Positions 40,128-60,745 of a DNA stretch of 64,000 bases are shown piece after piece. Made by a program: the position numbers and the translations under genes. The stretch lies in assembly GCA_963666315.2 (NCBI GenBank), contig CAXXHG010000008.1, forward strand, positions 142,969-206,968. Reading direction: 5' to 3'. The notes under the pieces were generated by a model that saw only the letters and a list, made by a program, of their open reading frames with translations, had not been told where the DNA came from and did no database searches. Position 1 is the first letter of the stretch. The number at the start of each line of letters is the position of its first letter. This DNA comes from Candidatus Binatia bacterium (GTDB lineage Bacteria > Desulfobacterota > Binatia > Bin18).

Positions 40128-42850
40128 ATGAGATTCTCTGAGATTATCGACCAAGCTAGCGAGCTGCTCCAGCGCAAGGGGCGCCGATCGCGCATGAAGA
40201 CCATCCGCAGCGAGCGCTGTATGCGGCGCTGCGGATGCAAGAAGAGATGCGGGGGTATGCGGATACGCTCCGGGAGCAGGGACGCGCTCCGCTCATGGTG
40301 CGCGTGGGGCTGAACACGGGCGAAGTGGTGGTGCGCTCCATTCGCAAAGACGACCTGCATACCGACTATGTCCCCGTCGGCCACTCCACGAACCTGGCCG
40401 CCCGGATGGAACAACTCGCTGCCCCCGGCTCTATCCTCGTCACGGCGTACACCCATAAGCTCACCGACGGCTACTTCGAGTTCAAAGACCTGGGCCAGAC
40501 GCACATCAAAGGCGTCGAAGAGCCGCTGAATGTCTATGAGGTCTTAGGCGCTGGCCCACTCCGCACTCGATTGCAGGTCTCTGCCCGGCGTGGACTCACG
40601 CGCTTTGTGGGGCGTCACAGCGAGCTGGACCAGCGGCAACGGGCGTTCGAGCAGGCCAAGGACGGCCACGGCCAAATCGTGGGGGTACTAGGCGAGCCGG
40701 GGCTGGGGAAATCCTGCCTGTTTTACGAGTTCAAACTTACCTCCCAAAGCGGCTGTCTGGTGCTCGAAGTGTTTGCGGTGTCGCATGGGAAGGCGTCACC
40801 GTATCTGCCCCTCATTGAGCTGCTGAAGACCTATTTCCAGATTGACCCGACCGATGAGGAACGGACACGGAAAGAAAAGGTCGGCGGTAAAGTCCTGATG
40901 CTCGATCGGAGTCTCGAAGAGACCCTGCCGTATCTCTTTTCCTTGCTTGGTATCGCAGACCCCAGCTCATCCCTGCAACAAATGGACGCCCAGATACGGC
41001 GTCAGCGGACGTTTGACGGGCTCAAGAAACTCTTCCTGCGCGAGAGCCTCAATCAACCCCTCATTCTCATCTTCGAAGACCTGCACTGGATAGTCACCGA
41101 GACCCAAGGCTTTCTGGATACGCTGAGTGAGAGCGTGGTCGGTGCCCCCTCGTGCTGTTGGTCAATTATCGACCCGAGTATCGCCACGAGTGGGGCCAGA
41201 AGAGGTATTACACCCAGCTGCGCCTGGCGCCTCTCGGGAAGAACGAAGCGGAGGAATTGCTGTCGTTTCTGCCGGGGACGGATGCCAGCCTCACTCCACT
41301 CAAGGCGCTCATCTTAGAGAAAACGGACGGTACGCCGTTTTTTATGGAAGAGGTGGTGCAGACCTTAGCCGAGGAAGGGGCGCTCAGCGGCGAGCGGGGA
41401 AACTATCGCCTAGAGGCAACGCCACCAGAGTTGCACATTTCACCGACGGTCCAAGGCGTGCTTGCCGCCCGGATTGACCGGCTGGCGCCCGATGAGAAAG
41501 CCCTGCTCCAGCAACTTTCGGTCATCGGCCGGGCGTTTCCCTTGCGGCTGGTCCAGGGAGTGGTCTCCCTGCCCGAAGACACCCTGTACCGGGTTTTGGT
41601 ATCCCTCCAACGCAAAGAGTTTCTGTATGAACAGCCGGCGTTTCCCGAGGTGGAATACGTCTTCAAGCACGCGCTGACCCAGGACGTGGCGTATGGCACG
41701 GTGCTGCACGAGCAGCGCAAAGCGTTACATGAGCGGACAGGCCAGGCGATGGAAGAGCTGAATAAGGCGCGTGTGGGCGACCACTACAGTGAACTGGCAC
41801 ATCACTACAGTCGCAGTGGGAATGCGGAGAAGGCCGTCGCGTATCTCGGGCTGGCTGGCCACCAGACCGTGCAGCGGTCGGCCACTTCATCACGGCCATC
41901 GAGCTGCTCCAGACCCTGCCGGACAGTCCGGAGCGCAGCCAGCATGAGCTCGTGCTGCAGGTGGCCTTGGGCGTGCCACTCGTTGCCACCAAGAGCTGGG
42001 CTGTCCCGGAAGCGGGGAACGTGTACCTACGGGCACGGGAGCTGTGTGAGCAGATGGGGGACACGTCTGAGACCTTCCCGACGCTGTATGGGCTACTTGC
42101 GTTTTATTTTACGCGGGCGGAGCACAAGACGGCACAGGAGCTGGCCGAGCAACTCCTGCGCTTGGCCCAAAGCCAGCAAGACTCCGCTCTCCTGCTGGAG
42201 GCTCATTTGGCGTTGGGGTCCAGCTTGTTCTACCAGGGAGACCTCGCCCCTGGCCGCACTCGCCTGGAGCAGGGGAGTGCACTCTACTGGCGTTGTCGAC
42301 CGAGCAGGGCTTTCCGAACTGGTTGGCAGAGGGAACTATTTTCCGGGGGTGGGCGCTGGCCGCGTAGGGGCACAGAGCGGAAGGCATCAGCCAGATACCG
42401 GAGGGACTGGCTGCCGGCAGGCCACGGGGTCAGAGCTGTGGCGGTCGCAGCATCTTGCCTTATTGGCCGAGGCATACGGGCAAGACGCGCAGGTTGAGGA
42501 GGGGCTCAGGGCCGTGGCCGAGGCGTTGGCTGTTGTCGAGAGAACCGAGGAGCGGTGCTCTGAGGCCGAGTTGTATCGGCTCCAGGGGGAGCTGACGCTG
42601 GGGAAGTTCAAGGTTCAACTGTGAGACTGAAGCTGAAGAATGTTTCCAAAAGGCCATCGCGATTGCTCAAAAACAGAAGGCCAAATCTTGGGAACTGCGC
42701 GCCGCTACGAGTCTCGCCCGCCTCTGGCAGCAGCAAGGCAAGACCCAAGAGGCCTGCGATCTGCTCGCCGCGGTCTACAATTGGTTCACCGAAGGCTTTG
42801 ACACGGCGGATCTGAAAGATGCCAAGGCGTTGTTGGAGACATTGAGCTGA
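40128..42850 (+). pseudogene. cyclase-AAA-TPR remnant 4 (multiple deletions and frameshifts)
   Basis: [59 protein letters not shown]. Confidence 0.9.
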
Positions 42851-43326
42851 CCGCCATCCTCGTCCTGTCCTTTGCACAAATCGCGTCCGATAAGGTGGGA
42901 ATCTGGCAAGGTTGCCTCCCCAAGACCTCAATGAAATAGCGGTGCCCATGGGGACCTTGCTTGCTCAGTGCTAATCTTTTTTGGCGTCCAGACACGGCTG
43001 ATAGCGGCCATTGTGTCAAGCTTCGTACCAAAAACCCTGGACACTGGCGGAGCCGCGTCTAGCCATTGGGGACGGGCTTTAGTACAATCCAGCGCGATCG
43101 GTTGCCGAGGACGGATTATCTGCCGGGACCTCTGCCGTCCTGGGAGGAAACGGAACAAGAAGGCAACGGAGGCGCGATGAGTGAATCCCGGGACTTTGCA
43201 GATAGCGCGCTGGATGTTGTACCTTCGCGAGATGCTATTCCCAGGGAAACCGCTCCACTTTCACTGTAACGCCTGTCGAGGTTATTGCGGCCCGATTGGG
43301 CTCACATTCAGAAGGAGGCGAGACGC

Positions 43327-44160
43327 ATGAGCACACACGTTGACGAACGGCCGAACGCAAGAGAAAGGGAACGGCGCCTGGGGTTCGTGAGCCGGCCTCG
43401 GTTCGAGGACTATCGCGAGAAATTCGCCCCATACTTTAACATGGAGCGCCGCAACGGCATCCTCCAAGTGCAAATGCACACGGCGGGAGGGCCGGTCATG
43501 TACGGCCTCCCGATGCACAATGCTTGGTCCCAGCTGTGGCTGGACCTGGGTAACGACCCCGACAATGAGGTGCTGATTTTCAGCGGCACGGGCGACAAGT
43601 GGATCGCCGGGTTTGACCCGGAAATGACCAAAGAGCCCTTCCACGAGTTGCCGTCTGATGCGTTCTACGATCAGCTCTACGCGGACGCGACGAAGCTACT
43701 GGAGGCATTCATTTTCAATATCGACATTCCCACGATAGCCTGTATCAACGGCTCGGGCTTGCACACGGAATTCGCGCTGTTATGCGACATTACGCTGTGC
43801 GCGGAACACGCGGAGCTATTCGATCCGCACTTTGAGTACAACCTCGTGCCCGGGGACGGCCAGGGGCTGACGTTCCAGGAGTTGATGGGGCTCAAACGCG
43901 CGGCATACTATCTGTATACCGGTGACACGATCAATGCGGAGATGGCCAAGGAGATGGGCCTGGTCAACGAGGTGCTGCCGCTAGACGGGCTGCTGCCGCG
44001 GGCCTGGGAGATTGCGGAAAAGATCATGCAGAAGCCGCGCTCCATCCGGCGCATGACCAGTGCGGTGCTGCGGCGCAAGTGGAAGCGGCGGCTGGTGGAG
44101 GATCTAGGGTTCCACATCGCGCATGAATTGCTCGGCATGCACCTCACCAAGGCAGAATAG
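43327..44160 (+). CDS. crotonase-family protein, 6-oxocamphor hydrolase-like
   Basis: FEDYREKF, DPDNEVLI..GTGD, HTEFALLCD, FDPH..VPGDG. Confidence 0.8.
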   Translation: MSTHVDERPNARERERRLGFVSRPRFEDYREKFAPYFNMERRNGILQVQMHTAGGPVMYGLPMHNAWSQLWLDLGNDPDNEVLIFSGTGDKWIAGFDPEMTKEPFHELPSDAFYDQLYADATKLLEAFIFNIDIPTIACINGSGLHTEFALLCDITLCAEHAELFDPHFEYNLVPGDGQGLTFQELMGLKRAAYYLYTGDTINAEMAKEMGLVNEVLPLDGLLPRAWEIAEKIMQKPRSIRRMTSAVLRRKWKRRLVEDLGFHIAHELLGMHLTKAE

Positions 44161-60533: not shown

Positions 60534-60622
60534 TGAGACCCCCTATCGAGAAACGACGTTGCGTACGAAATATCTACACGATGCGGAAAAAGAGACTATC
60601 TACTGAGTACGCCGTTTCCCTC

Positions 60623-60745
60623 CGCGTTGAGTTGTCTTCCGATTCATTTCCTGCTCTTATCGTCGCAGTTGGTCTAGGACGGGAGCCGGGTCTATGAAAT
60701 TCTCCGACAGTGTCGATCAAACGAGCGAGTGGCTGGAGCGCGAAG
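60623..60745 (+). pseudogene. cyclase-AAA-TPR remnant 9: upstream motif plus first ~17 codons
   Basis: GAGTTGTCT-N12-CCTGCTCTTATC; ATG 60694 MKFSDSVDQTSEWLERE vs copy 5 MKFSEIVQQTREWLQRE. Confidence 0.8.

Follow-up and report, generated by a model that had tools for sequence, protein, structure and literature searches.

Remnants of a cyclase-STAND-TPR gene family among catabolic genes of a Candidatus Binatia genome: probable decay of clustered sensor paralogs

The stretch of DNA analysed here, the window, comprises 64,000 nucleotides at the end of a 207-kb contig (G000:C8:142969-206968) in the 4.99-Mb, 47-contig draft genome of a Candidatus Binatia bacterium, referred to as G000. Between its catabolic genes lie remnants of a single gene family, whose protein of about 1150 residues combines a class III cyclase, an AAA_16 (STAND-type) NTPase and TPR repeats. 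A first-pass annotation had placed six remnants on the plus strand and three on the minus strand, had found none of them intact, and had read them as the homology scaffold of an integron-like cassette system. A family profile made from 40 uninterrupted homologs and run against all stop-to-stop frames, in six frames, recovers all nine in place, and 0/9 are intact. In our analysis the array is probably the wreck of clustered, co-oriented sensor paralogs that stood among catabolic genes within an accessory region of the genome, and not a cassette system. The remnants are listed below in window coordinates, with profile positions spanning 1-1156; all come from the profile search, complemented by a repeat search for the upstream motif.

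1828..2052, minus strand: tail-only remnant, profile 1082-1156, just downstream of the SDR gene
3076..3440, minus strand: tail remnant, profile 1022-1146, with one frameshift, directly upstream of the SDR gene
12637..13226, minus strand: N-terminal remnant, profile 1-202, with an in-frame TAA and a frameshift
40128..42844, plus strand: mosaic pseudogene, a 17-codon N-stub (40128) followed by profile 170-889 and then 963-1156, with several frameshifts
47504..50971, plus strand: full-length pseudogene, the upstream motif followed by profile 1-1144 from 47569
52461..52643, plus strand: tail-only remnant, profile 1096-1156
56673..58102, plus strand: 5'-truncated pseudogene, profile 672-1156, with one frameshift
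58381..58493, plus strand: family upstream motif (58381) fused to the last 29 codons, profile 1128-1156 (58401-58487)
60625..60750, plus strand: upstream motif and first 19 codons (ATG at 60694), abutting or running into the amidase gene

All remnants are co-oriented within their group (6/6 on the plus strand, 3/3 on the minus strand). The mosaic copy matches profile 170-1156 in six pieces over 40178-42844, and the full-length copy at 47569-50971 carries in-frame stops at 48562 (TAG), 48865 (TAA) and 49825 (TAG) together with two frameshifts. These two copies cover the AAA_16 and TPR regions of the profile, and window remnants also align to the cyclase part (profile 1-334). Junctions within remnants take the form of jumps in profile position, from 17 to 170, from 889 to 963, and from the upstream motif to 1128. 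Two weak extra family fragments lie beside the CmcJ gene, at 44167-44313 and 45730-45858 (independent E-value of the latter, 0.0012). The two minus-strand tails at 1828-2052 and 3076-3440 bracket the SDR gene, as the first-pass annotation had noticed; the open frame 2250-3452 (minus strand) fuses the family tail (profile 1022-1124) to the SDR domain, and the true SDR start is probably internal. Cumulative GC skew is lowest at 34-36 kb (region about 30-38 kb), with genes and remnants on the minus strand to its left and on the plus strand to its right.

The same decay is found throughout the genome. When matching pieces are chained, the 123 found in G000 form 61 family loci, which we counted as near-full (14), tail-only (22), N-only (11), N-plus-tail (5) and other (9). 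A frameshift, nonsense codon, internal deletion or truncation is present in 60 of these 61 loci. The near-full loci hold 32 frameshifts and 16 in-frame breaks between them, and the sole unbroken one, C5:45597-48971, stops before the conserved tail. In-frame stops arise mostly by transition, from Gln to TAA/TAG and from Trp to TGA. A shared 'CTC TAA' nonsense context was rejected, as its 3 occurrences among 40 listed in-frame stops were judged to be chance, and the coincidence of nonsense sites in different copies (Gln 159, Trp 1136) is, by our estimate, about what chance gives for some 25 events on about 90 one-step sites. The contig C41 holds four co-oriented near-full pseudogenes alternating with enzyme blocks. 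The loci are clustered: 27 of the 61 lie no more than 10 kb from a neighbour, whereas 1000 random placements gave 12.5 on average and 27 at most, so that the non-random distribution expected by the first-pass annotation is borne out.

The family was functional before it was lost. In 6/6 paralog pairs, third codon positions differ by 47-57% and second positions by 9-14%; this combination of low second-position and high third-position divergence means that the paralogs diverged as working genes, under purifying selection, and probably died recently. The decay is specific to the family. Among ORFs (open reading frames) of catabolic families, 14 of 101 near remnants are short, versus 31 of 262 far from them, when fragmentation is scored by ORF length (a coverage-based measure was dropped as misleading, because distant homologs align only locally). 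Neighbouring and other long genes are intact, with 36 open frames of at least 1000 residues in G000; luciferase-like monooxygenase (LLM)-like ORFs number 163.

Of all parts of the gene, the tail is retained most often, with about 40 loci covering profile 1101-1150 versus about 17-22 for the body. This excess, and the alternation of co-oriented tail-only relics with cargo, would be expected if integrative elements targeted the 3' end of the cyclase gene and accreted in tandem, each leaving a duplicated att-like tail and its cargo. Such a history is very improbable, since tail relics start at scattered positions (profile 989-1136), 22 tail-only against 11 N-only loci make no strong asymmetry, and no integrase is found in the array among the ORFs scanned. 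Differences between the tails lie mainly at synonymous sites, so the tails derive from distinct ancient paralogs and do not represent a repeated att site. The ends of the N-stubs are likewise scattered, between profile 17 and 135.

Relatives of G000 show the family in less decayed states. In a same-genus set of 12 genomes (including G009), 11 have 1-5 family matches, the best being uninterrupted frames of 1127-1179 residues, and only G009 has dozens of fragments. The core DNA of G000 is 86-97% identical to that of G009 and mostly 72-79% identical to that of G006 and G007. Closed same-genus genomes were rejected as a synteny baseline, because window 22-42 kb gives only 13 scattered matches, at 66-81%, in G006, G007 and G022. 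In a further comparison of 64 loci in other metagenome-assembled genomes (MAGs), mostly labelled Binatia, 34 of 42 additional family chains are co-oriented, 18 copies are uninterrupted and full-length, and tail-only and N-stub relics lie beside intact family genes. Because co-oriented clusters occur both in these MAGs and on C41, such alternation in a shared orientation belongs to the family itself, and the window represents its most decayed form. A reading-frame change recurs near profile 1080, in the variable linker before the tail (L035, L040, L047, L066 and several G000 loci); it hits otherwise full-length copies from different MAGs, and the linker may be slippage-prone.

G009 offers a view of the same loci in a second decaying lineage. 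Its contigs were picked for holding family matches, and the sample of loci is therefore biased toward family DNA. On G009:C136, the order is SnoaL-LLM, a tail, a pseudogene (profile 1-211 plus 685-1156) and ACAD-BVMO (ACAD-like hydroxylase and Baeyer-Villiger-type monooxygenase), with flanks 91-92% identical to the window; at the site of this pseudogene, G000 has the 52461 tail only, together with two REP/MITE hairpins. The cargo order is thus conserved, and only the intervening remnant differs. The reverse case is given by copies 1 and 2 of C41, which are near-full in G000, whereas G009 keeps them as tails only or with internal deletions. C17, C18 and C21:218919-221377 likewise differ between the genomes in what has been deleted, and at C14:153598-153729 a family copy of G009 is wholly absent from G000. 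At C32:3407-3813, G000 has a tail fragment, and the G009 contig begins with an N-terminal piece and then ends. Lesions at shared loci are not the same in G000 and G009 either (C21:151828 and C17:16498). Deletion is hence independent and ongoing in both lineages.

Based on these data, we propose the following route from a sensor-gene cluster to the present array. Selection on the family would have been lifted recently. Illegitimate deletions would then be tolerated only with both ends in dead DNA, and each pseudogene would shrink from the inside and from the side that has no essential neighbour, leaving N-terminal and tail stubs pressed against functional enzyme genes. The shared orientation of the remnants would be inherited from tandem duplication, and their alternation with catabolic genes would mirror the catabolic character of the neighbourhood and of the whole genome. 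Remnants would also receive insertions and rearrangements, as they offer safe ground.

The first-pass annotation had described the blocks between the remnants as unrelated enzyme genes, and a Pfam scan of about 48 window ORFs, mostly of at least about 160 codons, finds the gene types it had named (ECH, CmcJ/NvfI, LLM, SnoaL/LEH, LLM, ACAD-like, BVMO, LLM, MBL and amidase). These genes and the other elements of the window are:

2250..3000, minus strand: SDR gene (adh_short_C2, about residues 154-396 of the 400-residue frame 2250-3452)
6647..7879, minus strand: IS256-family transposase, the sole mobility gene found in the window
43285..44160, plus strand: enoyl-CoA hydratase (crotonase; ECH)
44414..45691, plus strand: CmcJ/NvfI-family oxidoreductase, with the weak family fragments on both sides
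46110..47161, plus strand: LLM pseudogene in two frames, split by a frameshift
51042..52289, plus strand: SnoaL/limonene-epoxide-hydrolase-like (LEH) gene, then an LLM gene
52313..52410, no strand: REP/MITE-like hairpin element, absent at the matching G009 site
52696..52812, no strand: second REP/MITE-like hairpin element, also absent at the matching G009 site
52851..55976, plus strand: ACAD-like flavin hydroxylase, then a BVMO
56123..56629, minus strand: C-terminal fragment of a second BVMO (E 6e-19)
58172..58369, plus strand: 65-codon ORF, without a family match in domain searches
58501..60533, minus strand: LLM and metallo-beta-lactamase-fold (MBL) genes
60729..64000, both strands: amidase (plus), enoyl-CoA hydratase (plus) and haem-containing (aldoxime) dehydratase (minus) cut by the contig end

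The organisation of these blocks does not correspond to an integron. No integrase or other recombinase family was found among the scanned ORFs. A repeat search of 39-64 kb, run without a dedicated attC model, returned family-derived direct repeats only and no shared inverted repeat at the block boundaries. The blocks hold one to four genes, and the LLM and MBL genes at 58501-60533 lie on the opposite strand, unlike promoterless single-gene cassettes in one orientation. The integron-like system put forward by the first-pass annotation is therefore unsupported; a passive, remnant-associated turnover of gene blocks is conceivable but doubtful.

Several features of the enzyme genes and small elements are of separate interest. 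The amidase, enoyl-CoA hydratase and aldoxime-type dehydratase that stand together at 60729-64000 may form an aldoxime/nitrile-type pathway. The CmcJ/NvfI-family gene is multi-copy, and its DNA identity across the genus is 78-90% (83-90% in near-complete genomes) against 72-79% for the core; a second G000 copy (C32:4482-5853) also lies between family remnants (C32:3407-3813 and 5848-5958), and the depth of public-run contigs peaks at the copy at 44414-45691 (369-748). The REP/MITE-like hairpins measure about 90-115 nt; another lies near 37825, and there are about 38 sites genome-wide. Five of them are within 1 kb of family loci, where 1.4 are expected, and public-run contig depth over the hairpin bin is very high (352-605). 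The BVMO ortholog is directly followed by the ortholog of window gene 13710-14921 (ACAD-like) in G006:C1:895931-900441 and G007:C1:2873454-2876529; in G000 this gene sits 40 kb from the BVMO and on the other strand, the region being heavily rearranged relative to G006 and G007. Two probable gene fragments lie on the minus strand, one at 5157-6005 (FGE-sulfatase domain, profile 75-255 of 255 only) and one at 32496-33149 (amidase C-terminal part, profile 321-445 of 445, 24.8 bits, below the cut-off). Elsewhere in the genome, a D5 N-terminal-like (primase-associated) ORF at G000:C32:14090-15145 (minus strand) adjoins the N-stub-plus-tail remnant C32:15310-15868 and is a possible mobile-element relic.

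Several observations fit poorly with decay as the only process. The tract 40178-42287 (2110 bp) is 100% identical to G000:C43:182497-184606, and simple decay leaves this identity unexplained. In G009:C136, the tail stub upstream of SnoaL contains the junction to a flank that matches G000 C22:54372-54978. In G009:C264, a tail and its 3' flank, 90% identical to G000 C41:19009-19818, lie between two BVMO genes. G000 carries two MFS transporter genes at C21:210138-213221, where G009 has tandem family copies. At least three G009 loci thus show a changed context and not a plain deletion. Same-locus remnant pairs of the two genomes differ by 27-35% at third positions, compared with 13-24% for four flanking genes (three of them at 13-15%), and some of these remnants may not be simple orthologs. 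At the DNA level, the cargo genes share 80-90% identity with dispersed genes in other same-genus genomes (the G006 group), above the mostly 72-79% of the core, which hints at transfer of the cargo. Outside the window, DNA within 10 kb of family loci holds 1.6 times as many members of catabolic families as expected (92 versus 58.9), as the first-pass annotation had anticipated; window 14-40 kb, however, holds no remnants and is as rich in catabolic genes as the remnant part. The finding that breakpoints fall in remnants is partly built into the comparison by the choice of G009 contigs for the family. Finally, no cause of a family-wide loss was found: the candidate checked, loss of a cAMP receptor, is unsupported, as G000 retains 2 matches to proteins that bind cyclic nucleoside monophosphates, as in 11 of the 12 same-genus genomes.

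Some of these observations would be accounted for if the dispersed paralogs, and especially their conserved tail, served as passive recombination substrates that delete, move or import enzyme blocks, the remnants then being the cause of the turnover. All of the structural differences between G000 and G009 that were examined end in family DNA on at least one side, as the first-pass annotation had predicted. The tails share near-invariant runs of about 16-17 nt, the remnants are clustered in DNA rich in catabolic genes, a tail-plus-flank module stands in different contexts in the two genomes, and MFS genes have taken the place of tandem copies on C21. The state of the copies argues otherwise. 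Between-copy identity is 69-84%, with a median best value of 82%, and among the 61 loci only two pairs share a tract of at least 90%, namely the 2110-bp tract and one of 140 bp at 97%; these are the only tracts of recent exchange, where the first-pass annotation had expected mosaicism among copies. The ends of the 2110-bp tract are abrupt and coincide with profile jumps of the window copy, and they are non-colinear and without microhomology. The 52461 tail of G000 does not read as a clean tail1/tail2 hybrid of the pair in G009, breakpoints are scattered along the gene, and cargo order is kept where it can be compared. The same distribution of breakpoints is expected under neutral decay, since breaks are tolerated in non-functional DNA only. 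We therefore consider a homology scaffold that captures and shuffles cargo unsupported, and its passive version unlikely. It is also distinctly unlikely that the dead copies are the actual sites at which catabolic blocks are exchanged, lost and gained between and within the genomes of the lineage, providing fluidity without a recombinase; the 2110-bp tract, the translocated tail-plus-flank and the replacement of cyclase copies by MFS genes would then be snapshots of that process.

The identity between G000 and G009 is itself uneven and bears on the quality of the assemblies. G009 matches G000 at either about 90% or 99-100%. In the window, 10010-13378, 16424-22118, 27881-31116 and 33467-39520 are 99% identical to G009 contigs, and C46:123625-127645 of G000 is 100% identical to one of them. 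Either the lineages have exchanged DNA recently, or the G009 assembly is mixed. The two levels of identity suggest mixed populations in G009, and the draft state of G000 (the window ends at a contig end, and the identical 2110-bp tract lies on two contigs) might invite the view that the array is a misassembly or strain chimera joined at its repeats. This is extremely improbable. At 69-84% identity, the copies are too far apart for an assembler to mix them up, and public-run (Logan) contigs from three studies reproduce the array with its junctions and lesions, which speaks against a concern raised by the first-pass annotation. A contig of X19, which may be the source sample and hence not independent, covers 39501-43459 with 1 difference, across both junctions of the 40128-42844 remnant; it crosses the 2110-bp tract unbroken, and the tract may have a single context in X19. 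Contigs of X20 and X21, from other studies, match 45680-46878, 49206-50712 and 56693-58582 with 0 differences, frameshifts and a stop included. Contig joints such as 41690>57932 and 42596>50925 were not taken as excision or chimera, given sides of 20-43 nt, 90% likeness and a flag that joints of this kind stem from repeats or other organisms. No excised circles were seen in the public-run contigs.

The domain structure of the family raises the question of its role. The best genome copy (P0001) has PF00211 (Guanylate_cyc) near its N-terminus and PF13191 and PF13424 in its central and C-terminal parts, as do nearly all listed homologs. The closest homologs are mostly from MAGs labelled 'Candidatus Binatia', and single copies at 57-61% identity are found in Cupriavidus, Ralstonia, Paraburkholderia and Pseudomonas. 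An effector-like N-terminal cyclase followed by a STAND-type AAA_16 and a C-terminal TPR region would suit an NLR-like immune or surveillance protein, and a family of this kind would undergo birth and death, with truncated relics as its normal by-product and the enzyme genes as bystanders. The copy number, which goes from 1-5 to dozens between close genomes, and the relics beside intact genes in other MAGs are consistent with this. The cyclase domain also matches Pycsar (PycC) models, with E from 2.6e-15 to 1e-3; these PADLOC matches are confined to the generic class III cyclase domain, however, and leave an assignment to a defence system unsupported. No defence partner or PycC-adjacent effector was identified among neighbours judged by their Pfam names only. 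The single conserved copies in Burkholderiaceae better suit housekeeping signalling, and G000 has no functional copy left, unlike a maintained immune repertoire. We thus regard the NLR-like explanation as quite improbable.

Comparison with known systems helps to place the family-decay reading that we favour. Plant and fungal STAND/NLR-type gene clusters evolve by birth and death. Like them, the family encodes nucleotide-switch sensors that carry a repeat domain; its paralogs stand in tandem in one orientation, vary greatly in number between close relatives and have truncated relics beside full genes. Here, however, no functional member is left, a class III cyclase takes the place of the effector, catabolic genes lie between the relics, and an immune role is conjectural. 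Integrons resemble the window array in their one-directional layout, where a repeated element recurs between short blocks of unrelated genes. Integrons rely on IntI, attI and attC, whereas here no integrase or conserved recombination site is found, the one- to four-gene blocks occupy both strands with their own spacing, and the repeated element is a decayed 3.4-kb gene with copies 69-84% identical and cargo order stable where comparable. The orphan modules of Rhs/CdiA and the pilS loci of Neisseria are silent 5'-truncated arrays used for recombination. They share with the window a series of co-oriented 5'-truncated copies with small unrelated genes in between, but in those systems an expression locus remains intact, and the orphans have variable ends that follow a conserved stretch used for recombination. 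In the window, by contrast, it is the conserved end that is retained, the relics carry lesions, and there is no master copy.

Among curated models the nearest is TIGR03903, the 'TOMM system kinase/cyclase fusion protein', to whose positions 280-1266 of 1267 the cyclase-AAA-TPR body aligns (E 1.1e-142). Its N-terminal kinase part is absent from the family, the score of 477 bits is below the cut-off of 705.75 bits, and no TOMM genes were seen. Rv0386 of Mycobacterium tuberculosis is a multidomain cyclase-ATPase of comparable architecture. Recently host-restricted bacteria such as Sodalis and Serratia symbiotica are described as having pseudogene-rich genomes with many recent pseudogenes that carry few lesions each and are then deleted (PMC7067036, PMC3056288). 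The process resembles that seen here, except that in G000 the decay is confined to one gene family, and other families and long genes are intact. The titles and abstract openings returned by a literature search included no paper on adenylate cyclases or pseudogenes of Binatota/Binatia, nor on the decay of cyclase-AAA-TPR paralogs.

The array is thus a fresh example of a known process, the death of a gene family followed by deletional decay, in which the sweep is unusually complete and family-specific. This corrects an attractive but unsupported idea, as the window contains no integron built from a signalling gene. It provides a natural example of a paralog family whose roughly 60 loci are being lost together from an otherwise intact genome. 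Since two sister lineages are decaying independently, the order of events can be read, from point lesions to internal deletions, end stubs and complete loss. That relics of dead genes come to mark the boundaries of gene blocks calls for caution when 'cassette' systems are deduced from sequence alone. If, on the other hand, the remnants did prove to be sites of exchange, dead paralogs could organise the flux of an accessory genome.

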